A DNA stretch of 64,000 nt from Tubiluchus corallicola (GCA_030141605.1 JAQGDQ010000151.1:124001-188000); one strand, 5' to 3'. Shown: positions 661 to 61,300, counted from the first letter of the stretch. A program made the numbers and translations. The notes: generated by a model not told the origin, from the letters alone.

Positions 661-1455
661 CAATGATCTCTTGTGACCTTCCGGCTCCATAGCGTTTGAG
701 TTTTTAACCTATGCAAAGAAAATACATGTCGAATTAATATCCCATAATATGTGTTATCAGTATGTTATTCCTTATTTAATTTTTTGCAAACAAAAATAGT
801 TCGGGCTGACAATTGATGCTTTTATTACTTGTCAAATTGTGATTTAAATGTCTTGGTGTAAATTTAGAATGCCTTTTAACAGTTGCTGTTGTAGTTATCT
901 GTAATGTTGAAGGAATAACTGTGGAATACTTGAGTGGTCACGTTGTATGCTTGATTGCTAAGAAAACGAATGCAGGGCTTAGTTAATAATTAGACTGATG
1001 ATTGGCCACCTGTCAGGAAATTATAGTTTGGACAAAATGCAATTCCTAAGTAATTATACATGGCAAGTTCAACGGAGGCAATACTATGCCCTTCAGGGCC
1101 TTGATACCTATGAAAAAGCGATAAGTTCTGATTTCACTAAGCCTTCAATTGTCAAGCACAACAGCTCTTATTCAAAATTATTCTAAATCTTGTTTTAAAA
1201 ACATTTTAACTATTTTAAAACATTTTTGTGTAAAAAAACAAAAGCTGTCACATAAAGCATCTCCTGTCCCATAAGCAGAATCTTACCACAGTTTTTACAC
1301 AGTCAAAACGGTCCACTAGTTATTATTATAGATAGTAAAAAGGATTTGGAACTCACAGGAACCAAAAAGGAAAATATGGCACAAAACATGTTACAGTAAA
1401 TTGCTGTGTCTGGGTTTACATAACTGTTGGTACTTATAGTGTACATTTTTGACAG

Positions 1456-1712
1456 GTGCGTGAAAAATTGTAAAGAAAAGATAAATCCTAATGAGAACCT
1501 GATTTTGCGAGCAGAATGCTCTGATTGCGATGAAGAAGCTTTAGAGTCGATTTCATACGATTGGGAGATTATCCGTGGAAAACCTAATGTTGAGCGGCCG
1601 TATATTGTCTACAATACTAACTTCTATTTAACATACTTTCCTCAGACGGACCACATTACTTTACTAGCAGAGCTTTTCTTTGAAGGATTTGAATACTACA
1701 TAAAACTTAAAG
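1456..1712 (+). CDS. PKD1-like exon 1 in window (REJ)
   Basis: gacag|...aaag|gtatg; [24 protein letters not shown]...YYIKLK. Confidence 0.9.
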
Positions 1713-28700: not shown

Positions 28701-31700
28701 CTGAACGAAACACTTGCAGTTTTCGCGCAGTGTATCTCTGATACTGCGTTTTATAGCTAACCGAATGTATTGCACACCCCTGTACGACTTAGAACTTCGT
28801 TTACACAGTGTCTCTAAACGTGCCGCCAAAACAGTTATGCTGTCGATATACATGGATACATGTTCCAAAGTGCGACACTAGCTATTGTCAGTACACAGTT
28901 AAATTAACGTGAAACCCCTTCATTGAAACCACATGGTTCCACGTTGAGACGTCTTCTAATTTTAAAATCCAGTACATTCCAGTTGGTAAAAAAAGGTGTG
29001 GCTACCATAATATGTATTTAATGTATAGAATTTTTGGCTTCATACCATGCATAGACTGTAGTCTGTGTGTGTCATGTAGCAATGCCTAAGTCCACGTAAG
29101 TTCACAACCATATAGGAAATTAAGCTGTCGGGAGATGATGTGTGGCGAAATATGTTGAAGTATGTATGATGAAGCTCAAACAAATTGGGGAAGAGTTGAA
29201 TTAAAAAATAAATCGTCAATACAAAAAGAAACTTGAATATTCGCTGCCAAAATACAGTGAAATTTGATCTTGCAAACTAAGAAGAATTTGCTTATCTGTT
29301 GGTGAAGTGGATATTTAGTGGAATCACAAAAATCAGTTTCCAAGGCTATAAATCTTGTATTTTTTGTTCTATTGACCATGAACTAGACTTCTTACTTAAC
29401 AAGTGCACTTTAATAACTGGAAAACTGTGATTACATGGTCTGTTAATAAATTCCACTTTAGCTGGTTTGTTCAATCTTACATTTATTGATTGTGAGTCTA
29501 TTATTTGTTCAACACTCTATGGCCAATTATAGTACTTACTCTGCCCAGTTTTTGTGAAAATTTCTTCATCTTCCAGGTTTGGCCGCATGAACTTTTGCTG
29601 CCTAGCCAGAACAACATCTCATCCATTACAGAGTCTTTCAACTTTCTAAAAACGTTTGTCATATCGAGCCCTAACAGCACCTGCAGGTTGGATACCATGA
29701 TTAAAGCAGGTGATTTTACTGGTCAGTATAAAAGCCTTGTATATATTTAGTTAGTCTAATATTGAGTTATGGCTTGTTCACATAGTTTTTCAAAAGAATG
29801 GTACTCAAAACATTAAACTCTGTCCATACAATCAGTTTCACTGACAATTACTTTGCACATAACTATTTGTTGAAGGTTGAACTTCTCTTTCTTTCTGAAT
29901 AGCACCAAAACGACTTGTATGAAACTGAGTTTTTAGCGGAAATGAAAAAAACGAACTTCAGCGTCAAAATGAATCAAGAAATTACTTTGAAATATTTCAG
30001 GTATTAAAAGCAGAAGCACGAATTGTTTTTTTTTAATTATAGTCCGATAACACCATTTATGTTCTGATACTGGACAAATTTTCATCTTTAAATAACGCAG
30101 AATAATTAGGTTGTCATAGCATCATCGCTTAATGTTTCCTCAAATCTAACATTTTTTATTTGTGAGGTTTTACTAAATTTCAACAAAATCACTCCCGTTT
30201 TTTGCTGGTACAGGTGGTCGATTGATTAGGACAATGGACAGTGAAGTCTGTAGCGTTACAACTACTCTCTGCCTGATTCTGATCTCACAGCCTCTTGCAG
30301 TGATTCAGACAGTTGTCATATATTGATCTTTTGTGCCTTCAGCTAATGAGGTGTTTTGTTGTTCTTTTGCATACTGAAAAATTGACACCTGCAGACAAAA
30401 ATAAAATTTCATTAGCTGGGGACTCAGTCCTTTTGAGGAGAACCAAAAATGATAAACAACAGTGACAAACCATTAAGAATGGTCAGCTCCTACATACTAA
30501 CTTGAACATAAGCATTTTTCATCCTGTCAAATTGACATTTGTTTAACCCCATGATAAATTAGTCCTTATTTTGTTAACAGCTGCTGCACGCATTATGTCA
30601 TCTGTGTCTGCTGAAGTAAATGCTATTGAAGCAGGACAAGATGCACTCAATACTCCACCAAACACCGTAGAAGATCTAGAAGCAATGAAAAACATATTGG
30701 AAACTAAATCTAAGGTAAACAAAATTAACATTTTGTCAGAGTATGTCAGAAATGCCCACATATAGGTTTTCTTCGGATTTGTTCATAGTCTTACCTATAA
30801 ATTTGTGTAATATTACAAAATGGTGATCAGAACTTTTTAGGCAATGAGTATCGTGAAAAAGACATCCTACTTACTTCATTTTATATTTTCTCTTAATGAG
30901 CCTTTCTCTTACGTGTATGATGCAAAACTTTCACTGAAATGCAAAATTTTCACTACGTTTAGAGAATTGCATTTGAATTTTTGTGGCAATGACAGTGTGA
31001 CTAAACTCCATCTCATTTCACAAACAGACTGAGAAATTGCCATTCCCATACATTCTCCGAGTGCAACACTACTCGCAGTAACTTTCTTCACTTCTAGGGC
31101 ATTTTTTAAGTCATTCGTATAATTTCAGGTGAGAACAATAATAGTGAAATCCATATCAAAACTACCAATTTACAGCTTCAATGCAGCCAAGCAGTCAGCC
31201 AATTTACTAAACCAGACATTAGGCACATCCACAGATTTTACGCCAAAATTACAGGTGAGTCTTTCCTTAATTGATAGATGACACTGCCCAACAAAACCCT
31301 GCTGAAATCGCCGAACCAATTAACCCATAACAATAACCTTTGAAATGTTAGTCTTTGTTTTATGGTATTTCACTGATTCTGTGTTTATTTGCATTAGAGC
31401 TGAAATGTTTTAAAGGTGCAATGGTAAAGCGCTTACTTTTTCTAAATTTTAGTTAGCAAATTGGATATTATTTTAATCTGTACATCATGGGAATATTCAC
31501 TGTATATCTTCTTGACATTTGGTAGAGTATATAAGTCTATTATTAGCACACATTTTTATGAGTAGCTTTTGCCAGTATGTAGGTTTTTCTGAATTGGCCT
31601 CAACCAGTAATTCCAAACTAGTACAAGGTATCCCAAAAAAACTTTGCAGTGGTAATAGACAAAATTAACTTGGAATTATGCATTATTATACCATAATGTC

Positions 31701-34700
31701 ATAAAGATAATTTTACACTTTTGTGCCATTATTGCAATTTTCCTACCCTATAAATTTGTAAGACCACAATTATTAGTGCGGCCATTGTGGTTATTATTAG
31801 ACTTGCATAATATTTTTAAGCTTATAGTATTGTCAATGAATGTTTTTTGGAACATTCAATTCATTACACATATATGAGAGAAATTTATGTATGCTAAGCA
31901 GTAGTTAGTTTTTCACATTACATTTTGTTAAAGCAAACGCATTTGTTATAAATTTTTAACAACCTTAAACTGAGCTCTTTTAGATTCGAACGAAATTTTT
32001 GCAAAATCAAAAATTTACTGAAAGTGCTCCTGCCTAAAGGTTGTTATATTAAACATGAACAGAATTTGTGAAGTACTCATACTGCTGTCATTGGCTGTAA
32101 CAGGAAACTAAGGGCCTTGCAAAAACTGTGTATCTTTTCAACAGAAAATTCAACACTTCTAGCAAAAATTGTTTAAACATTTTATAGCATAAATAATATT
32201 ATACAGGCCAGGATTGAAAACATTTTGCTTTTTTCTAGACATTACTGGACACAAACTAGCATAATAAAGTGACAGAGTTTAAACTTTCTCAGTCCTTGAT
32301 GGCAAAAACGTCCAAATGCTAAGAACTTTATCATACCACAGTATGTATGCCTATTGGATGTAGGCTATAGTAAAAACTGCACAATAAGATTTTGCTTTGT
32401 TCAATGTTGTTCTACTGCTTTACGCATACTTAATTGCCTTACATTGCTTAGTCTTTTTGTGACTTTTTGTTTACAGATTAAAAGTTTGAGTGTTTTTGAG
32501 CAAATTGCAACCTTTATGGGAAAATATGCAGTAGAAGCAGATGCAGATGAATTGAAAGAGTCTACAAAGTATGTATGAACATTGTTTTGCTAAATATTTT
32601 TCTTAACTACAAATTTGCTCACTACTGTCAAAAAATCTGCATAAATTTATAAATACTGCAATTTCGGTTTTGTTTTGCATATGCGTAAATCTTCAACATG
32701 TATTTTATTTTGGCGCCAAGCTGATTTGCAAGGTATGTACAATTGTAAATATATTGGACACAACATTTGGGGCTTGGAAAAATTTGGCACTGCTATTTTT
32801 GCACCGAACACGTGGGCACGAGACATTTATGGTCCCAGCACCGACGCACAAGGCGATTGCGGTTCTGTTTTGTGCTACATATTTTGCTGCCTAATAGGCT
32901 GAATTTATTTTGGAATTCCTCCTTTAATATCTGATAGTCATACTTTGTGACTTTTACAATATCTACAGTAATTTTTTCTGAAGCATCTTAAGCATCTAAA
33001 AAACGTTTTTGTAAGAAACGAAATAATATTATGATTTTCGTGAGTACGACCGTAATAATACAGGAAACAACTAGGTATTGTAACTAAAAACAAGGCTGCT
33101 GAACGTATAATGTTGTAACGGAAGCGAAATGCCAATTATTTTCGACCCCTCTCTACATTGTGATGGCCTCGTCTGTTCGAAGCCATTGCATAGTGGGGTT
33201 GAATACTGGGTATGAAACAGTCGCTATGCCCCATTGATTCAGCAAGGTGTGTTTACCAGCTAAGCACCTGTTCTGTAATTGCAACCAGCATAAGGCACAC
33301 GTGATGATGTCTGGCAGTTTCTTCTTATAAATTTCCTGTTCAATTTGCATTTTTTACATCATCACTACTGGGCATATGGCACTAGATTGCAACAATCCAG
33401 TATTGAACGCTGAACCTCTTGACCACCGTCACTACTGGGATTATAACACAATGAAGGTTGTGACATTCCAGTAGTCTTTACAGTATTATCATGTATTTCA
33501 CAAGTGATACAGCAAAAACATTTACAGTCTTAACATTGATAGGTATACAGTATTTAATTTGCTTGCTAACTAATCTAACTAGTTGTTCTGGAACTAACAG
33601 CTAGTTATAACCAACAAATGAACTAAACATCGCATTCTAGATCAGTTTTTTTTTCAAAAAAACGCAATGCGTTCAGTGAATATAGTGCGTTGTCATATAA
33701 CACTAGTTTTGGTGCGAACGAATTTTTTGTGTCGTGCATTTCTGTTATTTACTGATTCACTAGCTATTTCTGAAATGAAACTCTGTCATGTTTTGACAAA
33801 ATGCTAATGTAAACTTGTAGAGTCTCCTTTCATTTTATAAATAACACACAAAATACCGAATTAAAATGAAAAATTAGAATGTGTAAAGTCATTTGATTAT
33901 CATATTATTATCTTATTCTGCTGCAGTTAACTGTTTGACATTGTTTAATTTGGTGAATCCATGATTCTTAAAAAATTTAATAATTTCCTAAGTAAAAATA
34001 AAAATAGGTACAACATCAAATTTTATTGGTGCTCAAATGTCTCTGTGCCCAAATGTCCCATGTGGAAATGTGTCTTCCCCAAGTCTCTGTGTCCAAATGT
34101 CTGGTGGTCAATTTGGCCGGTCTGCTCGTTAGTTTTTATAGATACGCAAATTACAGATACAAAATGTTTTATAATTAATTCAGTGATGCAAAAAGCCACA
34201 GTTTGGTGCAATGCATTCTTCTGGTGTCATGTTTTATTTTGCAGTTTGCTGTACAGAAACTATTTGCATTTGATTACCTCTCGATAGCTTGTTTTCGCTT
34301 GACTCGATCTTTGATCAACAAGGGGGTTCAAGACAACTATATCACCTCTAAGTATACTCTTGCCAGCTGTCACACAGAACATATGGTGTACACAAGCATA
34401 TCGCTTTTGCAAAATTTGCTTAGTTAATCTGGTCCAATTCAAACAGTTTTGAATCGTTTTGGGTGACATGAAGTTGAGCTATGCTATTGATAAACTGAGG
34501 ACTTCATACTTATTTGAATTGCTCTTTCCAGATTCGTTGTTACTGGAGTTGCAAACATTTTTAGTTATTCAATAAATCAAACTCTAAAAGCTGTACAGGG
34601 CAACAGAGATGAGCTTGGCATAGGAAAACCTGTGGTCATTCCCGACACTCGGTCCACAGAAGAGATAATAGAGCAAGTAAGGTTTCAGCTGATTAAGCAT

Positions 34701-37700
34701 ATATAATTTCAATGACTGCAATTCTAATTGTTGTTCACTTGCATTTAAAGTGCAAGTATCAAATTAGAATATGACATCAGTTTGTGAAAGAATTTGATTA
34801 AAATGAAAAAAGCTGAGTTACACTTTATTAATTTATTAGTCACTTATCTATTGTGAAAGTGTGTTGTTGGTATGCACACATTGTAGTTTCTATTTTTGTA
34901 TTTTTAAACTTCAGTGCTTTTTCTGCTTTATGTTCTTGGATGCAGTTTTTCTTTTTGTCATTTAAAAATTCATTGTGCTCGAATATTTATCCGAGTGGTA
35001 TGCTGGGCTTTCAGTACACCAGCAGTTTAACTTGTACGGGATTATTCTTTTATTAAATATTTTGTGTTTTTCTCTATCTTTGATAATTCAGTTTTATTAG
35101 CTCTTACTGTTATTTGCTATCACACAAGCTATGCTTAGTGTGCTATCGACCATTTATTTTTTCTGGAACGGGACTAAATACTGATATGGCAAAATACGCA
35201 GTACACTCTTGGATACTGGTTTAACAGTATTTATTGATAATTTTAAATTATTTCTTGGCAAAATTCTCAACAACATTTTATATTGTATTATTTAGCAAAA
35301 GAACATAACAAAGAGGTTTGTGTACTTTACTGATTTGGTTTCTGAGACAATTTTTTTGAATGCCATTCCGGGGGATGAGCCAGTTATCCTTAACACGGTG
35401 CCTCTTACTCTTAGTCTTGAGCGTCAGAGAGCACGTCATTTAAGAGGTAACTGTGCTATGATGCTTTTTTCACATGGCAACACTGTTAAAAATGGATTAA
35501 CTATCATTATATGTGTAATTTTATTACTAAAACATTTTTAGGGATAAAGCTCTACTGTTTTCAACTGATATGTATGTTAGTTCAGTTTTTGTTGGCTAAT
35601 GTGATGTGCCAGTCTTAGTGCAAATGATAATCACTAATTAGCATTATGCTGACTCAAGTAAAGGAGAACCACAATAACTCAATGATTTTTATATGTAGTA
35701 TGATATGCATTTCCCTGTGGTTTGGTAATTACCTATTTAATTGATATGAGAAAAAGCTTAACACAAAAGCTTAGGACTTGTAAATGAAAAACAAACATAT
35801 TTGTATGAAATGCAAAGCTTTTTCATTGTATAAGGCTTACTAAAATGGCTGGATGACTACTGGGAGATCATTTCTGAACACTTTAATTTTCCGTACTGGC
35901 CCTGGCTGTTTTATTATAGGAAAAATGTATATAAACCTGCACCTGCAAGTGGCTTTACGGTAAATCCCTGTGACTACAACTATTCATCTGTAAACTCTGC
36001 ATTGGGAGGCGCCGTGGTATGGGAGTGGCTTTGGTCATGAAGCAGAGCTGGAGTACCAGAATAATGCATAGTTGTATATACTTAGTGTGTTATCATTTTT
36101 TGGCTTGCCGAAACACACACACCTACACACCTGCACTCAGGTGCGTCCTCACACACACATTAAGTGAAACACACGCCTGCACTCAGGTGCACACTCACTC
36201 ACACGTTAAGTGAAACACACACACACACCTGCACTCAGGTGCGCCCTCACACACACATTAAGTGAAACACACGCCTGCACTCAGGTGCACCTCACTCACA
36301 CGTTAAGTGAAACACACACACACACCTGCACTCAGGTGCGCCCTCACTCACACATTAAGTGAAACACACACACACACCTGCACTCAAGTGCGCCCTCACT
36401 TACACATTAAGTGAAACACACACACACCTGCACTCAGGTGCGCCCTCACTCACACATTAAGTGAAACACACACACACACCTGCACTCAGGTGCACCCTCA
36501 CTCACACATTAAGTGAAACACACACACACACCTGCACTTGGGTGCACCCTCACTCACACATTAAGTGAAACACACACACACACCTGCACTCAGGTGCGCC
36601 CTCACTCACACATTAAGTGAAACACACACACACACACACCTGCACTCAGGTGCGCCCTCCCTCACACATTAAGTGAAACACACACACACACACACACACA
36701 CACCTGCACTCAGGTGCACCCTCACTCACACATTAAGTGAAACACACACACACACCTGCACTCAGGTGCACCCTCACTCACACATTAAGTGAAACACACA
36801 CACCTGCACTCAGGTGCACCCTCACTCACATATTAATTGAAACACACACACACACCTGCACTCAGGTGTGCCCTCACTCACACATTAAGTGAAACACACA
36901 CACACACACCTGCACTCAGGTGCGCCCTCACTCACACGTTAAGTGAAACACACACACACCTGCACTCAGGTGCGCCCTCACTCACACATTAAGTGAAACA
37001 CACACACCTGCACTCAGGTGCGCCCTCACTCACACATTAAGTGAAACACACACACACCTGCACTCAGGTGCGCCCTCACTCACACATTAAGTGAAACACA
37101 CACACCTGCATCTACCTGCATCAGGGCCCTCACTCACATAATTAACACACACACACCTGCACTCAGGTGCGCCCTCACTCACACATTAAGTGAAACACAC
37201 ACACACCTGCACTCAGGTGCGCCCTCACTCACACATTAAGTGAAACACACACACACACCTGCACTCAGGTGCGCCCTCACTCACACATTAAGTGAAACAC
37301 ACACACACACACACCTGCACTCAGGTGCGCCCTCACACACACATTAAGTGAAACACACGCCTGCACTCAGGTGAACCTCACTCACACGTTAAGTGAAACA
37401 CACACACACACCTGCACTCAGGTGCGCCCTCACTCACACATTAAGTGACACACACACACACACACCTGCACTCAGGTGCGCCCTCACTCACACATTAAGT
37501 GAAACACACACACACCTGCACTCAGGTGCGCCCTCACTCACACATTAAGTGAAACACACACACACACCTGCACTCAGGTGCACCCTCACTCACACATTAA
37601 GTGAAACACACACACACACCTGCACTCGGGTGCGCCCTCACTCACACATTAAGTGAAACACACACACACCTGCACTCAGGTGCGCCCTCACTCACACATT

Positions 37701-40700: not shown

Positions 40701-43700
40701 ACTTCTTTTACGCTTTTATTTTGTAACGTTTGCAGCATTTTTAGCAGTGTAAGTAAGTGTAATAAGCTAAGCATGTTTAGAGTAATTAGGACTCATCAGC
40801 TAATTTACACTTTAGTAACTTTTTGTGAATCATTTGTTGGGCTTTTTCTCTACCCAACTATCTATTCATTATATTGAAGTTGCAAGTTCTAATATGCTTC
40901 CATACAAGTTTTCCCCAATGTCTGTTTAATCACGGTAAATGATACTAGTTTGGTGTTAATCAATTATATTTTCAATTTTACTTATAAATGTGATTGATGG
41001 ATTCATAGATGACAGCTCAACTCAGTCCACAAATCTATCAATTATAAAAACATTTGTGTGCATTCAGTTATGAATGCCAAACCTATTGAAAATTTTAATT
41101 TTATTTTAGGCGTTCCTGAAATTGAAACAAATGTTGTTATAAATCCGCACATAAACACAGATAAAGATATTACTGTGCACAGTTTTATTATAAATGGAAA
41201 CAGCTATGGAAGTGCGTCTTTTCTAAATTTACCTGAGGATATTTTACTTAAGGTAATTTTTGACATTTATTTGTAATTTAGTACTCGTAAGTGACATTTG
41301 TAGAATTATTGCTGGAATAAAAATGTGATCTGGTCAACGTTAGAACTAGTGCTTGATTACTACAGGACCAGTTCAATCATTAATCTTCTATCTTGGCTTG
41401 GTAAGCTGAATTTTTATCTTCGCTACACACATTTTGCTGTTCTTAGTATAGATCTCGATGTGGTTGGACAATTTTTCTCAAACCGAAGGAAGCCATTTTG
41501 ATGCATGTGAAGACCTGCTTTATATGGAAACATACAGAAAATCACACACACAACACACTTTATTTCATAAGTATTTGATATTGGAGGTCATATCACCATT
41601 TAGGCACATGATTAGGGAAGTGCAAGTGGTTTTTATATTGATGGATTTTTAAAGCTGTAAAATTTAAACCAACTTACATTTTTTGCTTAATTTCATTAAA
41701 ACAATAATAATGATGTAGTTGTATAGCAATATAAATATAATATAAAAGAAATATTTGACAACACATGACTAGCAGAGAGTTTAGTCTAATGGTAACCCTT
41801 TCTGTCTGAGAGGTCGTGAGTTTGATACAGTGGCGAGGTCGTAACAAAATGGTATGGATTTTTAAAAATGGTACCTGCAGTTACACTGATTGGCATGTGG
41901 TATTTCGAGTAATGATAGCCTCTGTTATATTGATTATTATTTACAGTCGGTCCAAGTGCACTTTGGTGCTTATGTTAATTGTTCATTCAAAAAAGCCAAC
42001 TATGGATATAAAGATTATTACTATTATCATTATTATTATAATAATTAAGTGAAAAAATATTTATTATTGCATTGATGAATTTTTATGTAGGCCTGTTTTC
42101 CTTCTGTTTTCAGTTATAAAACATTGTGTAATTTTATTGTCCTAAATAATTCCCAGTTTGCCTGCAACAAACAAAACATTTGAATGAACAAAATTCGAGA
42201 CAAACCTGGACAGTCAGGCGATCGTGCATGTAAAATTGTTAATTCTTTTAAGGTATGGTGCTTTGAAGGGACTCTAATCTTGTTTTTGACAGCTTGTTCT
42301 CTGGCATTGCATCAGAATATTTTGCTAAAACAGTAACTAAACATAATTCTACAGTTATAAAATATTTGCATTTATTTTTTAGGTTTTGTACAGAATTGCA
42401 CTGGAATTTTGTGGAGTTTTTTTTTCGAAATGCATTAACTAGTAAAATTTAATGTTTCCGATTGTTACACTGACATATTATTGATAACTATTTTGTAAAG
42501 TGCCTGCTTAATTTCTTTGACCACGTTTGATTACAGGTAGTTTTAAAGAGATCTAGCAAACCGGTGATTGATGATTTTAAGAAAAAATCTCTAGTGCATT
42601 ACATTCCGAGCTCACGCAATGAGTCATACCATGCTTCTTACTACCAATTTCGCACTATAAACGTTTACAATGATAAAGAGCATCCAGACGTATGGTATGT
42701 GGGGATTTTGTTTGACTCGTATTACGATCCTTCCTGCTACAAACCACTACAAATTTGTTCGACCAAAACAGATGAGTGTAGAGAACAGCGCAACGTTGAC
42801 CAGTGTCAGGTGAATGATGACGATTGCAGAACTAGAACGTACCTCTCTTGTGGTATTGATATTTGCATGGAGAAGCAACCATGTTATCCCGACTGGGTAG
42901 CTTACTGCCAAAAAGCAATGGAGGTCTGCATTAGGCGACAAATCAAATGTAATTTATCAAACTTGAACAAATGTGACATATATTTCAGGTACTGTGTGGA
43001 TGGTTGCAAAAAGTTCTCGAATGACACAACTTGTAGCTATCATTGCAGTCAAAGAGAAATTAACTGTACTAATGCTGCGAACAGTACATGCGAATCGACT
43101 GCTGTTTGTTTAAGAAAGAGAAATTTGTTATGTGTTGAAACGCTGTTTCTCCTTCCCAAAAGGCAGTATTGTAAGGACGTTTATTACAATTGCAGCGCAG
43201 AAGGCGAGGCGAGGTGTGATCGCGAACTTGCGAACTGCAACGGCGAGTGTCGTTTGTGTAAGCCACGTTGTGATTCAGCACTCCTGGGTGACTGTCTTGC
43301 TTTCTGCGATCAGGAACATTTTAACTGCACAAAAGCTAAACCGGAGAAATGCAAAAAATTTACGCAACAGTTTCATAATGACTCTTTGTGCGATCAGATA
43401 TTATGGCCAGAAGTTGAACTGACTAACAGTGTGCAAGAGCCAGAACCTGCAGCAAATGGTATGATTTGTTAGAAGGCTAGGTGCAATAATAACATGGCCT
43501 AAAATTGATACTCTATATAAAAGATATTATGTTAGCATGTCATGAACCGCTTATCTTAAGTATTTTTTGAGCCAAGGTTTCACAGGACTGCGACTTTTTT
43601 TGCGGTAAACGAAAATTTTCTAAATCCAACTGTCACCAAAATATTCACCCGAATGTATTTTGTGTCTAACCATTTGTGTGAAGTTTGTGTGAAATTCATA

Positions 43701-46700
43701 AATTTATGGTTATCTTTAACGACTTTAGTGACACTTGTATGACAAAGCGAATGTCACAAGACATTCGCATGTGTATCATTCCCAAGTTTTTGCGGATTCT
43801 GAAATTGTTAGAAACATTTGGCGACAAATTTTCACAGGTCTGATACATGTTACTACAACCATGACAGTTTGGCGAAGCTTTGGCAAGGTATTGAATTTTG
43901 AGTAGTAGTGGGTGCGGTCATTTACAAGATTACTTCGATTACTTAATCACAAGTCTCTGGTATTGATTACTTTGTTATGTGATTGAATATGAACAATTAC
44001 TTTTATGCCTAGGAATTTTTAATATATTTTGATTTTTCAAGAATGGCAAAATTTGTTTGAAATAATTTTTAACGTGGCAAAATCATGGATGTGAACACCA
44101 TACGTGTGTAAACACAAAGCTTACATATCTACACCTTCTTATACCGACTCCAGTTAAGTTTTATCAGTTTAGCATGACCAGAAACCTAGCAAATTTGCTG
44201 ACTCTGTAATTAATGCAGGTACAAATAAGCATTTTAATGTAAATAGCTTCAAAACCTTCTGACAAATAAATTTTAGGAAACTTTGTAAATAAAACATGAT
44301 AAAAGTCTCATACTTTATTATAGGGAAGGTCTATAATAACTAACTGCTGAAAATTCTAGAGACTTAGGCGTTATTCATAGCAACTCTGTGTGCCAAAAAT
44401 ACAAATCTGTACATAGAGAGCCAATCTCAGTAATCGATTACTGACTGAAATTAATCAATAATCGCAACTCTATTTGAAATCAGCGGTATCACCGACCACT
44501 AGTTTTTCGACTTCAATGACAAATTTCAATGAAAAGATTTTTAAAGCCGACGACCTTGGAACTTTTTTGCAATTGTTTGGCAAACTTTTGGCACATGTTT
44601 GGCGAATGTGGGCTTTTCGGATACTCACCGAAGTCGCAAACCCTGTGAAAGGATTCTTGTTTTTTATCTTAGATTTGAATATCTGTCTCTTAACAGTTCA
44701 GCTTGCTCATGGGCAGCAATAGCAGATTGAACTTTATGCCACTATGAAGTTGTAGCTTATGATTAAATGTCAAACGCGTTATTACTGTGAAGGGACTTTA
44801 TTATGCCTTTTGCAATGTAGAAGCTGGTTTATTTTCTTTTTTTTTACAGTTGGTAATGTTCTCTATCACATTGCATTGCTGACAGCTGATGTACAGTTTA
44901 GTGGAACAGCTGCAACTGTGTTTGTTTCTCTTCATGGCAGTTTGAACAGTACTCATGGAAGAGCCTTGGACAGCACAATACGCGACTTCAGTCGGGGACA
45001 GTAAGTTTTAACAGTGCTGAGAGAGCTTCGGGATCGTTATTCACAGAGTTACTTTACACCGTAGAAACTGATTCTTTTAGCAAATGAAAACAGCAAGTTA
45101 TACAGTGATGAAAACTTTTGAATGTTGTTATTTTAATCGGAGTCCCAGGAAATACTACATTTAACCTACACGTGACTAACCTTCACCGCGCAGTGAAGGC
45201 TGTACATTTTCACTGTATATTACATGATGTGTTTATTGTTTATTAATTTAAAAGAGCTGTAAAGCAGCTTACAGTTCTAGTAATTGTTAATATGTACACA
45301 GACTAAATGTGGTAATAATTGTTGGTAATAAATGTAGTGCAGGAATAATTTTTTGGTAGCCTGTTTTATCGTGTTGTACCAGTATACATCTTGGTGTATA
45401 CATTGTGTTTGATTGTACATTATAAGAGTAATTGATGTCAAACATATTAGTCTATCGCTCCGCCCCCGCTGTAATGTGAGCACGCTCAGCAGCACTCGGG
45501 ACAATGGCTCACGCAAGACAACAACTGTGTCTAAACTAAACTAAACTAAACAACATGACAGTCGCAACTAATGTCTAATCAGCTGACAAACTGATTGCAC
45601 TTTTTCGTAAACACAGATTTGCAGAACACAAAATTAACACTTTAAGTAGCCAAAAAATGACTCAGTTTGAACAGAATGTAGAGACGAAGTTTCAAAGCAC
45701 TACAAAATACAGAGACATGAGCATAATAAAGAAACTGAGCCAGTTAGCCTTGCTTTACAAGTAGTGAACAACAATAATATTAAGTCTCTCTTGCCTTTGA
45801 ATATACGAACATCATGCCTGCAATGTATTTTTTCTACATTAACTGATCATGTGCTCGTCTGCAAGATTTATCCAGTTTTTGTATTTTTCCATTTGTTAGG
45901 CTACGGAAATGGAATAAATTTCACTGTTCCATTCCTTAGCTTAGACGACCCTGAATGCCGGAGTCGCATATGTCCCAATAGCATCTTTTAACCATGATTA
46001 TAACCAGGAAAATAGTGTAGAATTAGCTAATATTACATTGATGTATTTTATAAGTTTTGACCACATTTGAATTCATTTTGACTGTGAAGATGAGGTTTCT
46101 TAAAACTGGCCAGAAAACAAAACAATTTGTTTTGTCCTTATTTAAAGTTAATCGAATAGTTGTTTTTATCTAACTTGCAAAACCATAAGCTAAACTAAAT
46201 TGCCTATTTTCCTGATTGCAAAATGGTTTAATCAGCAACTCATAGACGTAAGCATTGTGCATTTCTTCCTATATACGAAACTGAACTATATATTTCCACT
46301 AATTCATTTGCAATTTCAATTGACAGTAATAAATCTAGAACCAGGCCAATATTTCTCCCGCTAACTAATGAAAAGTTGAGCAAAATAACTTGCACGCTGA
46401 TAAAATTTCAATGAAAATGATTGACGTTATGTTAGACGTCAATTTTAAGCTCTTTTTCACTTGGTATTACAACCAGATTTGTGCATGATGGATGAATATT
46501 GGGCTGTATGGTTTTCTTAAAAAATTCTAAATCCTGCAAACATTCAATGGCTGGTTTATTCAAAAATGAATGGTCGTTGTGAAATAGGAATCTGAGTCAT
46601 TATCAAGTCTATGACTCGAGATTTAGGACTAGTCAATAAACACATTTAGCTGTGTATACGTTCTCTCTCAGCATGGTTAGAGTAAAACCTAATACAGTTG

Positions 46701-47056
46701 ATCTATCCGCCCACTAATCAGCTTGGTTAGTCAATTAGCCAGTCATTTTTAACTTCGGTTGCCAAGATGACACCACATACACTAGGCCATGCATCTTGCT
46801 CCAAGGCGAGTTCTTTAAAAAGACACTTTGTTACTTTCAGAGCCTCAGACAGAGATCTTTCAGCATTTTAACAAATGCAGATTTGTATGAACAGATTTGA
46901 AAGAATTAATTTGGACATACATGTATACATGTTCAACAGCTTTGTGAGAGAAATGTATTTACAAGACTTAGTGTAACACGTTTAGACACATATTGATACT
47001 GCCCAAATCAGTGTTGTATTTGTGTGTGTGTGTCTGGGTGGTGGGGGGTGCGTGCT

Positions 47057-47125
<69 letters not shown>

Positions 47126-50100
47126 TATAGGTAGAATAGATTTTTAAACTCAGTATCTGTTATATCTGAAGATCTCCGTGGTAAGTCTCTCAGTTTTTTC
47201 TAGTCTCCTCACTTATCTTCTTCAGTCAAATTGGCAATATAAATATTTTATGGTGCTATTTACTTTCAGAGTTGACTGGTTTCATTTTGAGGATACAGAT
47301 GTGGGGCAAATAAACAGTATCAGTGTTTGGCATGACAATACTGGACCAGACCCAAAGTGGTTGCTCGAAAAGGTAGTCCCTGGTGGAGAAAACTAGTTTC
47401 ACTAATCTCAAGCTCTGTGTTTTGAAAGGAGACATTACATGATTTACTCTCGCAATCTGACTATATAAATTTACTTTTTATGTAGATCTATATCAAATAA
47501 AAAGCAAAAATAAATATTCTCATACATGCATGTATGTAAGCCAAGTCCATACAAAATTGTTCAAAATATAACAAGTCAATCAATGTTTTGCTGATCACTA
47601 TAATAAATGCAAAACATATTGGAATTTAATACTAAAAATTGACTTTTGTAACTTCCTCCCAGCTTCTCTGCTTAAAAATGTAGTATTTCAGTTGAAAAAA
47701 CTTGTATTTTCCAACTCATGGTATGTAGCTCATGGAAGCTGCCATTTTGCTTGCAGTGCTTCTTGTTGTCAAGCCAACTATAGCAACCATTTTCAAATGT
47801 GACATCAGATGCACTTACAAAACCCATAGTACTACGTTTTTGTAATTTTACCATGTTGTTTTTCTAGAAATGGGACAAAAACAATGCAAACTTTAACAGT
47901 GACTTTTTTCAAGACTAACTTTCAGTGTTCATCTCAAACAAAGATCACCTCGGGTCAGAATTAACATAGAGTGATGAGCTTAATATTAAAATGATCCTTA
48001 TGAAGCACGAAGACTGGGGACATGTGAAAAATTAAAGTACAGTACGAACTATGAAGAACAGAAGTTGAACAACAAAAATATATTTATGTTCGTACAAGTT
48101 ATTTGGTATCAAATGGCCTGAAGTTATGAAGAAAGGCCTTTGGATTAAGCAGATCCAAATAAGAAAACTGCTTTGGACTAGATCTGCATTACGATTGCCC
48201 AAAATCATTTCTTCCTACAATGCTGCTTAGAGTTCTTATGTCAACAATAGCCAACCACTCACATAATTAAATGTTCATATTTAAAATCAACACAACTTTA
48301 TTAAATCTCACTTTACAAAGTTAAAAAGTTAAAACCATGCCAAACATTTCGACAAACTACTGCTGCTATAATGCAGTGGTACATTTACAATCATACAACC
48401 ATTTTATATAGTCAGAGCCTATTATGCAGTAATTAAGTAGTTAACAGAAGCCAAATAGGTAATGAATAAGCAGAGCAGTAAAGAAATTGATACAGTAACT
48501 TAAGCACGGATCGCTAGTAATTCATTAGTAACTAGCACTAAGCATTAAACAACATACTTAAACGCTAAGCTAAGGTAAGAATTTGTAAACATTTGGAGTT
48601 TTTGTCTGAAACTGGCAAAAAATTAAAAAAGGTCTCCTCAATCCAGCATTAATGACCATATTTGTGCATTTAGCCACAAAGCTGATTTTGATAATGTCAA
48701 TGTTGTGACCAGAGCTACAAATAACTGAGACTTATTAATAAATGAAAGTTTATCTAGGTACCATAATAGGCCTTATCTTAATGTACAAAGCAATTCAATT
48801 CCTTTTACTTTATTTTCAAACACTTAGCTATTTGTTACTGTATCAATTTCTTTTCACCAGGTCTGCTTATTCATTACTTATTCATTATTTGGCTTCTATT
48901 AAGCACTTGATTAGCGCATAATGGGCTGTGCCTATTTGGCCCGATTTTGCCGTTTATAACTATAAATGTTTAAGTGCCTGTAATAATTAATTGTACCACA
49001 AAAGGACTTAGCAAGTACATCTCCAAATTTAGTACATATCGTATGTAGTTGCAGCTGACGGAAGTATCCGACATCAACAAGTTGGATCGACTTGTGTTTT
49101 AGATGACAAGTAACTAAGAAAGCATAATTGCTGATGTGTACATGTTTTCGCTTTGCAAGCACACATGTAGCACTTTATGAAATGCTATTGTGAATGTGAA
49201 AATTTCCAATTAGAATGTCTGTTCATTCCATGCACGTGTATTTGAATGTGAATTTTGTGAATACTTCATTAGGTTATCTTGGTGAAAGAATATTATCAGT
49301 TTACTTGTCCTTGCATGACATGGCTAGAGGGGCCTCCTAGCATCAATCTTCAGACAATACCGTGCTTTCTTAGTGCAGATTATACTCCTCCAGGTATTTG
49401 CTTAGATTTATTTTGTCATACTAGCAGTTAGACATGTATGCATTTTCCTTCGACAATCATTTTATTTAAATTGCAAGTTTTTCTTGATGACTGTCCAAAG
49501 TAGTATGTTAGCAAAGCAATCATCAAATTAGTCTCTTTTCCAGAAAAATATACTCTGTTTCAAATTTAATAACATGTCAGTTGTAATATTACTTACATAT
49601 GCTGGGTTAACATTTTAAACTTTTACAAGACAGTTTTGTTTATTTATTATTAATATCAAATGCACCCTGCATGGGCGATACTTGATGTTCATGGACACTT
49701 TTTTCCTTTTCCCTTTGAGAAATAATAGCATAGCAGCATCCTTGTGTGGTAATTGCTTTTAGATTTCTAAAATTTAGCAGTGTTGTCTCATAGCTGCAAA
49801 AAGCCGTGAAGATAACTTGAAAACTTTGTGGTGTGAAAATAAATGAGTTCTTACTGTATGCTTCAGAGGTTTCTTCAAATGTTAATGCAGGAAAGAGCTT
49901 GTTTATAAGTAATTATCACAGTTAATTCGAGATGCAGAAACTTTGAAAGTGAAGAAAACTGTAAGTATTACAAAAATATTAAATTATAATTGTCTTCCAC
50001 GAAAGGTGCCAGAAAATATTATTAATGTGAAGTGCTTGTTTGTCTATGAGAATCGCACTTATCACGTAAAACTTCTGGATTTCTAATACTGTACATTACT

Positions 50101-53100
50101 ATGGTTTTAGTTAATAAAATCCCTTATAAACAGAAACCTGTTGTACTTACTTTTGTGTGAAAGTGTAAATATTTACTTTTTTCAGATCCAGAACTGGCGC
50201 GTGTAAACTTCAAAATAAGTTTTGCGACCTTTCAGTGTTTATTCTGGAATTTCACATTGGAACAATGGTCTTCTGAGAACTGTATGGTAATGCTGATTTT
50301 GTAATCATTAGCTTAACACTTTTGTTGATAAAAAGTGCAGTTACTGTTAAACACATATCAAAACTTTAAGTTCTAGTATTCACAATAAAATTTACTTCCC
50401 TCATTTGGTTATAATCACTACAAGGTATCTGTCGATGAATGGAACTTCTTGCATGGATTTGTGCTACAGAAAACAGTTTCGCCCAATTAAAAATGCCTAC
50501 TGATCAAAATTTTTGCTTGTTCATGTATCCTGTAGAGTTTTCTGAACAACACTATTGTGTTGCACCAAAACGTGATGTTAAATTGAAAGCATGTTTTCCG
50601 TAAGAAATAGTATAAAAGCTTGCAGATGCAACTTATAGAACCAGTGCAACTTTTTGTAGAAACGATAGTGTTAAAAGACAAGTAATGACGTCATTACTTT
50701 CAAATTTTCTTTTTGAACTATTTTATTACTTATCCATAGGCACCTATATAATATAACAAACAAATTCATAAACCTCTCAGCAGTTGAAAAAATGTTTGAA
50801 AAGTCATTTTTGGCCTTGTAAGCCTAATTTTGCCTAGTTCTGTTTGATTTACAATGCAATAATATCATAACACATCATGAAGCCATTTTTACAGGTTGGG
50901 CCTAACAGGACATGGAACAAAATCCATTGTCAGTGCCTCCACATGTCTACATTCGCTGGACGTTTTTTTGTCATGCCAAACAAGATCCATCCTTTCAAAG
51001 ACATTGTCTTGTTTGCCGAGTTTTTCAATAACCCCGTCATTGTCGTGTTTGTTTTGTCTATATGGATGCTGTACTTTATTGTGTTGATTTATGCAAGAAG
51101 AAAGGATCGGGAGGATGTAACACGGGTTAGTTATTTATATGCTATTAAACTAGGGGGACATTTTGCGATTGTCTTTTTGTTTAATATATAAGTACTTTCT
51201 TTATTAACATACTTACATCTATCCATGTGCACACTTGTTAGCTCTAGCTGTTACTTAACCTGGAAATCAAAGATCAGTTCTGATTCAGGATTCTTTATTA
51301 TTGACAATAATATGAGGAGGAAAAGAAAGTCATTTACTCGAAAAAAATTAATGGTGTTATATCATCTAATAGCGATACAGTAACTTGAATCAATTGGCCT
51401 TAAATAAGGAATAGATTCGAAAATAATGGTATAAACTTATACAGTACGATTTCAGTAAGCAGTATAGTACAGCTTAAGCAGTTAAACTTTGCAGTGAAAT
51501 GCATTTTTTTGTCGTCTGTAGTACACAAAATAAGTTTTTTAGTTAAATTTTGTTTATATTTCCAGTTGGGTGTGACAGTTTTGGAAGAGAATAATCCCTT
51601 TGACAAGTATACATATCTAATAACTACACATACTGGTATGAGGCAAGATGCCCAGACAACTGCTTTGGTTACAGTGGTTTTACATGGTACACTTAACATA
51701 TTGTTTAAATAGCGTTATGATGAAATCACTAACGTTATCAATCTGTTGCTATCAATTATATTTTTTGCTTCCTTGCAGGGAACAAAAAACTAGTGTCTGG
51801 AATTATTTGCTGTCTGGAAAGAAAACTTAAAAGCAGCTAATTAAATAAAAGACTGCAGTTGCGACCCCTATTTAATTTTTTTGACTAAGATATATCAGCC
51901 AGGTGGTCAAACTTCAACTGTCCAAAAAGTCTGATTTTTTATTACTCAAGAATTAGAGAAAATATTTTTGGTCACTTTAGCAGTTATAATTACTTTTATT
52001 TGAAAAGAAATATATGAGTATTAACATATTATTTTATCAGATTAAATTTAGTTTGTTGTATGAATTGAGGAAGATGTGGAAACAGTCAAACAAACAATTT
52101 GTTAAATGATATGAATAGCATAGATACTAGTGTTTATTAGTAGATTATTTGGGTAATATTATTTCAATCAGGTTACAAATGTGTTTAAAGGCTAGTGATA
52201 AGTACTGGCTGCAAAACTAGTTTTAAGGAAGTATATTTACACTACAAACTACATTATATACTTGTTTTATTTTGTCAGGAGAAGTAGGACAAAGTTTGCC
52301 AATAGCACTTTTCGATAGAAATCGACCTGTCATGACTAAAGCATCCCAGGACTCGTTTGTAATGACCACACCACATTGCCTGGGAAATTTGCATTCTCTT
52401 CAAGTTTGGCATGACAATAAAGGAGACAATCCTTCTTGGTGAGTACATGCTTGCAATAGCACTCGATTTTACACAAGAAATGTTTTATCTGTTATGTAGG
52501 GCAGGCATTTTGATATACAATTTATGTAGGATAACTGTTCCTGAATTGTTTCTATGCAAATTATCATAAACAAAAGTGCACTAGCTTTTATTATTTGAAC
52601 AAGAGTAACATGTCGTCCATTATATTCATGCTATAAATACTTTAGTATTGTCTATTTTACAAGTTATGAAGCAGCATTTATCAAGAAATGAAACGTCTTC
52701 CTTGTACCTCATCCTTGTGTAAAGTTTTAGTTTACTGATAATAAGCAGCTGGCCAATGACAACTGCTAAATGCATGTTTTTTTAGTTTTAAAAGTCAATG
52801 AAAGAGAATGAAGATTTCTTACAAAATGACAGTATTTACTTTTTAAGGTTTTTGAGACAAATCATCATAAAGGATATACAGACAGACCATACTTGGTTTT
52901 TTATCTACAATAACTGGCTAGCCGTTGATCGTGGACCTAAGACCATTTGTTGTATATTGAAGCCAGCTGGTGAAGATCAGTTGAAGGTAACTTTATAATC
53001 TTGCACAAGTATTTTTTATATACAATTTGCCATTTTATAAGTTGTTGTCTAACCATTCACAGCCAGGTCTTGTTTAATGATGATGGTTTGATGTGTGTGT

Positions 53101-58300: not shown

Positions 58301-61300
58301 TAATCTTGCTTGACCTATTCCATTCTTCACTGGTTTCTACTAGTCTTAGGATCGGAAATTCTGCAGACAGCTTTTTTGTCTGCATTCTCCACCAATTTCT
58401 CTCGGCTGCTACTATTGCACATTCTGTTAGTGCTTTTACTTAGCTTTTTTTTAATTATATTACACATCTATCCATCTCGGCTGTCTTCCATGACCGCTTT
58501 TGCTTCATTTTGTCCTCAAAAGATAGACACGTTCGTGCCAGTTACACTGCAAAATGAAACAGAAACTTCTGGGATGGATTGGTCTGCTTTTGGGCTCGAC
58601 GCCAGGTCCTCAACTGCTGATAAGTTGACTGAGCTGTAGAGATACATTTACCTGATCCAAAAAATGACTGCTTTCAGTCAGTTTAATACATTACTTTTTT
58701 TTAAATTATCCTTTTTCTGGTTGGGAATATGCTAATTTTTATTTAATTTTAAACACATCCAAAAACTAAATTGTCAGATGATCTTTTCGAAGCAACCAGT
58801 TTAAAATTTTCAGGTTCTTGAGTTTTCTGTGTTAATAGTGTTTAAACTTTTAAAACTTGTCTTTCAGATACACTTTTCAGTGAGTTTTTTATGTTTTCAC
58901 AGTAAAGAGAAAACTGCAGATGCAATCGAAAGAGTAACGGAACAATTTCGGGACAAACAGACGGGTTCATTTGCTGCCGGATCTTTTTTTAGAATATCTT
59001 CATGGGTAAGTACAGCAGCCAAATAATATTAAAGCATTTTTAGAGTAAACTAACTTTTTTAAGTTGCTGATCAAACTAACCAAACTGGATGTTAACTACA
59101 CATTGTGGTTTCATCATACTTAATAACTTGGGAAATTTCGTCTGCTTAGCAATTTGTCTATAAATCTTGACCAATATCAGTGAAACATTAATTTCATATG
59201 TTTGCTGCCGCTTGCTTGGAAATGTTTCGGAAACATTTCTGTGCTAAATAAATTAAGCATGTATTTTCAGGCTTGTTAATGTTAATGATATAGGTCACCA
59301 TTCATGTTGTTCATGTAAATGATTTTCTAAATTATCACTCTCAACCACTGCAATCTTAATTAGATTACTTAATCGATCTGTTATGTTGAATTGTTTATGT
59401 TGAGAAATAACAAAGTTACTGGCAAACTAACCTCCACTTTGTGTGTTTGCATTAATGCATTTGAATGACTGATGTTGATGTCAAATGGAGCTGCATTGCA
59501 TTTTACAAATGTTACTATTGCTGCTTTTATTATTTGAACATTAATCATCTTGAAATGTCATGCATGAATAATAAAACTGTTCATCCGCACTCACGTTTTA
59601 AAGTTTAGCTCTTGGACTGGCTTTTATTTGCAAAATCATTTTTTTTCAGGTGGGAAAAAGCGAAATAAAATTTGAAACGGAAGAGGACTGGTTAGCCTGG
59701 TTGCGGAATTCTAACCGTTTAGAAGATAATACCGAAAAAGAAATATATGAGGAACTCAAAACCTCGAACAATGTGTTGTTAAAGATGGCAAAAAAGTTTA
59801 GCAAAGGTGCACAGGAGGAGTTCAGAAAAGCTTATGTAGCCCAAAGGCAAATTCTGAAACGTAGAGCAGAACTGAAAAAGAGAGGCGCGAGCATATACGA
59901 ACCTGATGACTGGTGGGGATATGAACTCATCTACATTAAAAAAGAACGAAGTTTTTGGGATGGCATCATTGCCTTGTTTAATATTCTCTGCTGTACTTGT
60001 GACTGTGAATGTGAGTTACCATGGTGGTGTCTCTATGTTGCCTGGACAGTTCTTGTTGTTTCCTCATTAATTTCTTCTTACCTAGTTATGCTTTACGGAC
60101 TAAGTTACGGATATAACAAAAGCGTTGACTGGTTGATTTCCATGGTGACATCATTCTTTCAAAGCCTGTTTTTCAGTGAACCAATAAAAGCTTTGCTTAC
60201 TGCTGCATTTCTCGCTTTTCTATTTAGAAAGCCGCCAGAGTTGGAGGGAGAACCTTATAATGTTCCTCTGCAAGAAGGTGAAGAATATCTTCAACAAACC
60301 TATTTTGATACCTATCAAAGGTGAGAAAAAATATTCCATTATAAAAATAAGTGTCACAATTACGTGCACCGTGTGAGCAATCCCTATTGCAACTGTGTTA
60401 TAGATATTTGTTCACACTCTTCCTCAAGCATAGTCTGTAAATAGGATGTTTTTCTCATATTGAATTTTGATGTCACAGTCTTATAGGCATTTGATTCTTT
60501 CGGCCACTTCTTATGTTTTGAGTGCAGATGAACTTCTACTTTTTTAAATACTGACAAAGAACTTACTTCCAGAGAATGCCACTGACTGTATAGGCCTTCT
60601 GGCTACTTTATTTCTATGCATACTTTCTTCTTCCAGCTATATGCTGTAACCTGATAAAAATATTCCCATGTATTGGACATCGGCTTCCATGAGTATTAAT
60701 TAGTGCATCACCAAATTTGTCCAAATCAGTTAATACTTAAAGTTTTTTTAATTTTAGTTGGTTTTCTTGTCCTGAAAAGTTGATGAAAAGTTATTAAAAA
60801 ATTTACTTGCATTAAAAAATTTACTTGCTTGCTTATGCTTACCTTGTAGATTTTGTAGTTTCCATAATTACAGAAAACATTCCCAGTTTTGTTGATCTGA
60901 GAAAATGTAAATGCTGACTTGAAAAATGAACACCGTGTAGCAACATTTCACTATACTCATACATTTTGTTTAACTTTGTGTGTATTTTGCCCACAGCTAT
61001 TTTTAGCTTTCTACATTTTTAGCTTGCTTCAGCGTCGGGAGAAATGTCAACCTCCAGATGAGAGGCAAATTGCTGCCACCAGGGAACGGCTCGTTTACCG
61101 ACGAAAAATGCGGCGGCTTCTTAATGATATTGCACTATACTTTTGTTATGCTTTGGTACTCTCCAGATTCATCTACCATGTTGTTGATACCAGGTAAAAT
61201 TTTCCACGCTAATCTACTATTATATTAATATTCTTGGTATGGGCTTAATATATTTATTTATATATATATAAGATTCGAGGCTACAGCTTCGACGAGGGCA

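Follow-up and report, generated by a model that had tools for sequence, protein, structure and literature searches.

The window examined here is a stretch of 64,000 nucleotides from Tubiluchus corallicola (GCA_030141605.1 JAQGDQ010000151.1:124001-188000), with positions counted from its first letter. The DNA is intron-rich and of animal type, with a GC content of about 34%, and it carries a receptor gene that extends beyond the window; a C-terminal polycystin cation-channel domain, a further feature of the family, would lie outside it. Matches to REJ, PLAT, GPS, TM1 and PLAT, found in this order, show that the predicted product is an animal PKD1-like (polycystin-1-like) receptor, as listed in Table 1. 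The domain assignments rest on single exons, most of which score under the Pfam cut-offs. Two consecutive in-phase exons cover parts of the 45-position Pfam GPS model, one matching 2-22 (E 0.0013) and the other 28-43 (E 0.023); taken alone, either match falls below the cut-off. A hydrophobic segment (TM1) follows the motif. The Phe that follows the first GPS Cys is present. The match to the cytosolic PLAT scored 23.7 bits, above the cut-off of 23, and the exon at 59650-60320 gave a weak match to residues 534-605 of PDB 6a70_B (E 0.021). NCBIfam searches with 27 pieces and PDB sequence searches with five single exons returned nothing relevant. The TM1-PLAT region presumably resembles PKD1L2 most. 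The exon at 59650-60320 also holds six Cys, and a tight Cys cluster and a long charged, helical-looking stretch stand ahead of its TM segments; the cluster is possibly a cytosolic lipidation site.

Table 1. Features of the PKD1-like gene in the window.
Feature	Position	Strand	Basis and remarks
REJ-domain exon	1424..1747	+	Pfam REJ, E 8.2e-8, above cut-off; profile 209-254 of 452
REJ-domain exon	15630..15863	+	Pfam REJ, E 1.7e-5; profile 326-360 of 452; 24.1 bits, under the cut-off of 25
Five exons, mostly helix formers	30581..35446	+	Predicted GAIN subdomain A or end of REJ
Three beta-rich exons	38783-38877, 39767-39920, 41110-41252	+	Predicted first part of GAIN subdomain B
Large exon	42537..43458	+	922 nt, phase 0 to 1; AG/GT ends, open, in phase with both neighbours
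Beta-rich stretch before the module	42537..42734	+	Read from composition as GAIN subdomain-B or accessory-sandwich strands
32-Cys module	42735..43391	+	219 aa, 7 sequons; predicted all-alpha with 16 disulfides; relative P0010
Predicted hairpin arm 0	42735..42851	+	Cys1-39, 8-31, 15-24; best nested pairing; beyond P0010 coverage
Predicted hairpin arm 1	42906..43133	+	Cys58-133, 65-125, 72-119, 80-111, 87-104, 91-100; best nested pairing
Predicted hairpin arm 2	43170..43391	+	Cys146-219, 153-206, 161-198, 168-191, 172-187; loop pair 175-179
Extra PLAT, three exons (44850-45000, 47270-47372, 49273-49393)	44850..49393	+	Phase-1 introns on both sides
One strand, GPS and TM1, two exons	50186..51125	+	H-M-S at the cleavage position
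Usual cytosolic PLAT, three exons after TM1	51566..52986	+	Pfam E 8.6e-5 on 52227-52439
Exon with two TM segments	59650..60320	+	phmmer match to PDB 6a70_B (human polycystin-1)

The gene shares with other members of the PKD1 family (human PKD1L1-3 and PKDREJ, sea urchin SpREJ1-10 and ascidian s-Themis) a REJ domain, a GPS before TM1, a PLAT directly after TM1 and further TM segments, as far as the family is described in the available parts of two papers (PMC1934368, PMC7018956). It differs from them in three ways. A 32-Cys module stands upstream of the GPS, a second PLAT does so too, and the predicted cleavage tripeptide, located at 50895-51125, is H-M-S instead of the H-L-T/S of the family. 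Large insertions do occur in the family, and the same source gives 428 non-REJ residues within the REJ of SpREJ7 (PMC1934368, in part).

All 23 exons from 30581 to 61193 have AG/GT ends, contain no stops and have matching phases; these exons were chosen by hand and eye, so the phase agreement is partly by construction. In order, helix-rich exons come first and beta-rich exons second; the large exon then supplies 66 beta-rich codons, the Cys module and a linker, after which come the three-exon extra PLAT, one strand, the GPS, TM1, the cytosolic PLAT and further TM segments. RNA from one run gave two short intron matches and zero exon cover. A preliminary description of this DNA had spoken of the 32-Cys stretch in terms of secreted proteins. 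The module does not belong to a free secreted protein; it is a portion of one exon of the receptor gene. That exon, at 42537-43458, holds the 66 GAIN-B-like codons, then the module, then a linker of 22 residues. The motif in its first part is presumably comparable to the GAIN-B of PKD1-like (PKD1L2-type) proteins. The reading frame of the exon runs through 313 codons without a stop (P about 3e-11 at local composition), and the five other frames contain 10-34 stops. The donor of the exon scores 7.3, within a range of 2.5-10.3 for the donors of the gene. Four internal donor-like sites, after 42694, 42809, 42988 and 43213, also score within this range, and none of the four is in the phase required by the following exons. 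Since no phase-1 donor within the exon reaches the score of the third-weakest donor of the gene, no simple in-frame form lacking the module is apparent.

The position of the module relative to the GAIN domain was then considered. The GPS constitutes the last five strands of a GAIN domain of roughly 320 residues (PMC3321182, in part), a domain that is common to PKD proteins (PMC9672506, in part). The module and the extra PLAT together span about 366 codons. Since only 17 residues separate the end of the extra PLAT from the first GPS Cys, the rest of the GAIN must be upstream of the insert, where helix-rich and then beta-rich exons stand in the order expected for a GAIN. The distance from exon 30581 to the first GPS Cys is about 795 codons, or about 430 once the insert is taken out. 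The latter number falls within the REJ-to-GPS gap of 379-460 residues in five fish PKD1-like proteins, obtained by subtracting boundaries tabulated in the available part of PMC5318412, and the end of REJ used in this comparison is approximate. These data suggest that the module and the extra PLAT are likely inserted in the GAIN, just before the strand entering the first GPS Cys. The flanking GAIN pieces had no profile match of their own in the Pfam and NCBIfam searches. PKD1 receptors usually have an uninterrupted GAIN of about 320 residues and lack a PLAT ahead of the GPS, an arrangement that is not a requirement for family membership and that this gene does not show; we infer that the insert lies within the GAIN.

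One alternative is that the gene model is partly wrong, with the exon shorter, skipped or non-functional, or with the module and extra PLAT outside the GAIN. The choice of exons by eye, the internal donor-like sites within the range of the gene and the GAIN-B pieces without a profile match would all allow for this. It is nevertheless very unlikely given the long open frame, the wrong phase of every internal donor, the short distance between the extra PLAT and the GPS, and the conservation of the module in a relative, P0010, described below.

The placement within the GAIN can be compared with what is known of this domain. As in the GAIN of adhesion GPCRs and PKD1 proteins, a GPS with Cys and Trp stands before TM1, with helix-rich and then beta-rich sequence upstream. 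In contrast to the usual GAIN, about 366 residues with two apparently folded modules would lie directly before the extended S10. The PKD1-type GAIN has been described, in the available part of PMC11697300, as having an additional beta-sandwich between S9 and S10 that includes an extended S10 and an elongated tethered agonist. According to the same part, GAIN loops are variable and often longer than 50 residues, and the supplements of that paper cover 2738 PKD1 GAIN models and their loop lengths. A folded domain inserted before the extended S10 is not among the features described there. Another assignment, that the insert corresponds to flap 1 of the adhesion-GPCR GAIN (10.1101/2023.03.12.532270, in part), was also tried. 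The residue count fits ADGRB2 (19 versus 20 residues before the conserved Phe position), but flap 1 was dropped because the S9-S10 sandwich is specific to PKD1, so the count from ADGRB2 does not transfer. Among the literature matches listed, no title or abstract opening mentioned a PKD1-type GAIN into which a PLAT or a Cys-rich segment had been inserted, and no such insertion is described in the available parts of PMC7018956, PMC4890752, PMC4810088, PMC13197933 and PMC12716839.

Two exons of the extra PLAT each matched part of the 117-position Pfam PLAT model below the cut-off, one at 1-47 (E 0.026) and one at 54-82 (E 0.02); the third exon, 49273-49393, had no Pfam match. The two exons fit the N-terminal and middle parts of the PLAT/LH2 model in the correct order. 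They differ from the usual PLAT/LH2 in that the domain is predicted to be extracellular, and it has one sequon as well as three Cys in its last exon. Compared with the exon of the cytosolic PLAT of the gene, it shows 10 identities in 20 positions, and the exon matches between the two are partial. We take the extra PLAT to be more like the repeated PLATs of the LOXHD1 type than like the cytosolic PLAT of this gene. Phase 1-1 cassettes are the exon-shuffling class. The phase-1 introns at both ends mean that the extra PLAT could be skipped or could have been shuffled in. Extracellular PLAT domains may also be present, unremarked, in other invertebrate PKD1-like proteins. The PLAT of the PKD1/REJ family is given as always intracellular in the available part of PMC1934368.

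Next, the Cys pattern of the module was analysed. Translation of 42735-43391 on the + strand confirmed an even number of 32 Cys in 219 aa, a content of 14.6%, and 7 N-x-S/T sequons were counted where the preliminary description had spoken of several. The Cys pattern is real. Steps of 4, 7 or 8 residues account for 23 of the 31 Cys steps, compared to a mean of 6.2 with random placement, and none of 20000 trials equalled this. Two internal repeats had been noted, and their coordinates are correct (Cys65-Cys119 at 42927-43091 and Cys146-Cys206 at 43170-43352), as is the spacing that they share, C-6-C-7-C-6-C-3-C ... C-3-C-6-C-7-C. The second of them has two additional Cys, 175 and 179, within its loop. 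The spacing had also been called palindromic around a turn. Mirrored Cx3C and Cx6-7C spacing of this kind, a feature of laddered hairpins, is present as two exact 3-step mirrors, but it is weaker than had been implied. Random Cys placement gave the mirrors in 15 of 20000 trials, whereas reshuffling the observed steps gave them in 775 of 20000, and they are borderline given the step sizes. A direct repeat of the Cys steps was reached in 21% of step shuffles. The ends of the two repeats are indeed similar in sequence (8 of 21 identities, E 0.005), but the whole repeats align no better than Cys-fixed shuffles (741 of 2000). With this result and no long DNA repeat, the two repeats were rejected as a demonstrable duplication.

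The absence of any likeness to EGF, TIL, LDLa, WSC or kringle spacing held up, with no Pfam family matched at E up to 10 by the module, the exon or P0010. Single arms of the module gave only unrelated Pfam matches (E 0.23 and 2.9), and no PDB sequence matched the module at E up to 10. A match to a known Cys-rich family, which would have argued against a novel module, was thus looked for in both Pfam and PDB sequences and none was found. Another possible explanation for the Cys content is that the residues bind metals, in a zinc-binding or metallothionein-like manner, in place of forming disulfides. The high Cys content and the one CxxC, at 172-175 in both the module and P0010, would suit such a role. 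CC and CxC steps are absent from all 31 Cys steps, the module carries sequons, and it lies N-terminal of TM1, which is extracellular in the PKD1 family (PMC3321182, in part). We therefore regard metal binding as highly improbable.

Homologues were searched for in several protein collections. The preliminary description had raised the question of whether the module occurs elsewhere, and the answer was one true relative and no further one in the scans. A full scan of 1.84 billion representatives gave two matches at E up to 0.001, P0009 and P0010. P0009 is a low-complexity repeat that matched over 27 residues and was discarded. P0010 is a protein of 216 aa from a contig of 2806 bases. Its alignment with the module spans 181 columns with 49 identities, of which 24 are Cys and 25 are other residues, and its score was not equalled in 2000 shuffles under any of three nulls, including one with Cys fixed. 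By this alignment, P0010 is a true relative of the module. The shared part has 27 Cys in each protein, and P0010 has exactly the same Cys steps from 153 to 206, among them those mirrored in arm 2. The N-terminal part of P0010 has two Cys displaced by four residues, and in residues 20-83 of this protein, equivalent to arm 1, 11 Cys simply recur with an 11-residue period (R 0.93 at 98.2 degrees). Due to this periodicity and the displaced Cys, arm 1 of P0010 fits a ladder less neatly.

Other searches did not add to the family. The module exon retrieved none of 311 candidates among proteins of 539-2000 aa, and alignment A1 retrieved one of 91 among proteins of similar length, which was P0010 itself, and none of 730 among proteins of 385-2000 aa. 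Proteins longer than 2000 aa were covered solely by the scan of 1.84 billion representatives. None of 143 pattern matches in a metagenome scan with A1 was accepted. With the GPS exon, one of 137 metagenome pattern matches, L001, was followed and rejected as a chance match of 15 residues. L001 (1-2288) is an AT-rich, gene-dense contig unrelated to the module, and its first frame presumably encodes a chaperonin C-terminus. ESM Atlas had no usable match for either of the queries P0001 and P0010, from which neither absence nor novelty follows.

The fold of the module was then considered. The Cys phase in the long arms of both homologues was best at 97-98 degrees per residue (R 0.83-0.96), and the heptad value of 102.9 was not preferred. 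Periods of 11 and 15 residues suit straight helix pairs. Two AlphaFold runs, with one and two sequences, gave models that are helix-only and sheet-free, with helix breaks near 95 and 168-180, but at mean pLDDT values of only 37.0 and 39.7. The helix ends at residue 94-95 in both. A beta-rich or disordered prediction would have spoken against helical hairpins, and neither of these low-confidence models contains a sheet. The extracellular, disulfide-rich, helical reading is supported by the even Cys count, the sequons, the position in the ectodomain, the Cys stripes and the helix-only models. Thus, the module is very likely extracellular with all of its Cys paired in disulfides, and it very probably consists of helices bearing a Cys stripe. 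This part of the preliminary description stood, and the receptor and GAIN context is what it had missed.

The arrangement of the helices was examined by scoring nested Cys pairings. The best nested pairing was the same with or without P0010 and gave the arms 1-39, 58-133 and 146-219, with the short pairs 44-50 and 175-179. Its score was equalled by 108 of 400 step shuffles for the module alone and by 33 of 400 with P0010. A sequon is present at the turn of arm 1, and a Pro at the turn of arm 2, in both homologues. Pro and Gly tend to be found at the proposed turns (10 of 100 versus 10 of 240 residues, Fisher p 0.045), with the arms having been defined post hoc. The preliminary description had proposed antiparallel helical hairpins stapled by a disulfide ladder. 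This is the best reading of the pattern, but the frequency of equal scores in step shuffles and the mean pLDDT under 40 of both models limit it. We somewhat favor a ladder of nested pairs that forms three arms roughly 3-6 nm long. The rigid rod into which the hairpins had been thought to assemble did not hold. A single out-and-back rod was rejected with a global mirror in only 4 of 15 pairs, and the best pairing forms three shorter arms.

The main rival explanation accepts the same gene and place, and makes the module one or two compact disulfide-linked helical bundles with non-nested Cys, forming a globular ligand-binding domain. The better AlphaFold model (pLDDT 39.7) packs residues 46-153 as a generic four-helix bundle instead of an open arm. 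A wide structural search with this model matched generic helical bundles, and only over these residues, at best with Z 8.9, an rmsd of 3.3 and 105 aligned residues, and the mirror is weak against step shuffles. However, the model is of low confidence, Z scores under about 13 are common among helical bundles, and the two homologues agree exactly in the mirrored steps of arm 2, which makes the compact bundle unlikely, if still the strongest of the alternatives. Foldseek, which the preliminary description had suggested as a check, gave no match at E up to 0.001 with the low-confidence model as the query. Alternatively, the Cys stripes could belong to long uninterrupted helices with 11- and 15-residue periods that are joined to a helix further away or to a second receptor molecule, resulting in a cross-linked or oligomeric ectodomain. 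In favor of this, P0010 holds one Cys phase over residues 20-83. Such long helices are nevertheless quite improbable, because the turn of the module at 91-100 contains a Gly and a sequon and spans a 9-residue step, because neither AlphaFold model continues the helix through it, and because the number of Cys is even.

The predicted laddered hairpins can be compared with the vicilin-buried peptides (alpha-hairpinins) and the nemertean neurotoxin B-IV, which have two antiparallel helices, nested ladder disulfides and spacing of the Cx3C type. Laddered helical hairpins are described in the available parts of 10.1101/2020.05.26.118075 and PMC6410017 as free peptides that are 23-55 residues long and contain 0, 2 or 4 disulfides. 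Here, in contrast, there would be a receptor module of 219 residues with a predicted 16 disulfides and no PDB sequence match. The likeness would be one of design and not of membership, and the two would work alike structurally.

Taken together, we favor the reading, at a probability of about 55%, that the 32-Cys stretch belongs to an exon of a polycystin-1-like receptor, folds outside the cell into three disulfide-laddered hairpins and is inserted with the extra PLAT in a loop of the GAIN. The module would form three antiparallel helical hairpins stapled by disulfide ladders, with 16 disulfides in all. Together with the extra PLAT behind it, it would hang on the GAIN loop before the extended S10. 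The stiff, glycosylated arms and the outward PLAT might bind a partner and pass a pull or the binding of a ligand to the sandwich that holds the tethered agonist. A coupling of the module to the tethered-agonist strand is a hypothesis that we hold as doubtful. It fits the proposal that ligand or force exposes the polycystin-1 stalk (PMC9672506, in part). Still less likely is a built-in lever in a lineage of polycystin-1-like receptors, in which a three-armed, 16-disulfide antenna and an outward PLAT are grafted in the GAIN sandwich and a partner membrane, a ligand or a pull directly releases the agonist.

The module is real and uncharacterised, and its architecture is unusual within a known receptor family. 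How PKD1-type receptors are activated via the GAIN by ligand or force is an open question. If the favored reading is true, it marks a GAIN loop that tolerates about 370 residues, which could be useful for tagging or force probes, and provides a lever on the tethered agonist that can be put to the test. Laddered helical hairpins would then be found not just as small peptides with at most four disulfides but also as a receptor module with 16, and a PLAT would lie outside the cell in a family where PLAT is held to be cytosolic. The reach of the finding is limited by the single relative.

Several other elements were found in the window. An intron of the PKD1-like gene contains a 52-bp minisatellite of about 50 copies at 36117-38669. 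LINE-like remains are present in the REJ-region introns at 9296-10532, 4670-5026 and 15791-16042; a reverse transcriptase match (E 6e-5) was found at 10320-10532 and the latter two were judged by eye. A decayed LTR retroelement with terminal direct repeats 91-93% alike lies inside an intron at 19195-26063 on the - strand, with matches to an integrase core (E 4e-4) and an aspartyl protease (E 0.018). We take this element to be BEL/Pao-like. At 24290-24974 it carries an intronless piece of a GT8 glycosyltransferase, which we assume to be glycogenin-like; this piece lies in two reading frames (Pfam E 2e-5 and 1.5e-4) and looks like a captured host mRNA.
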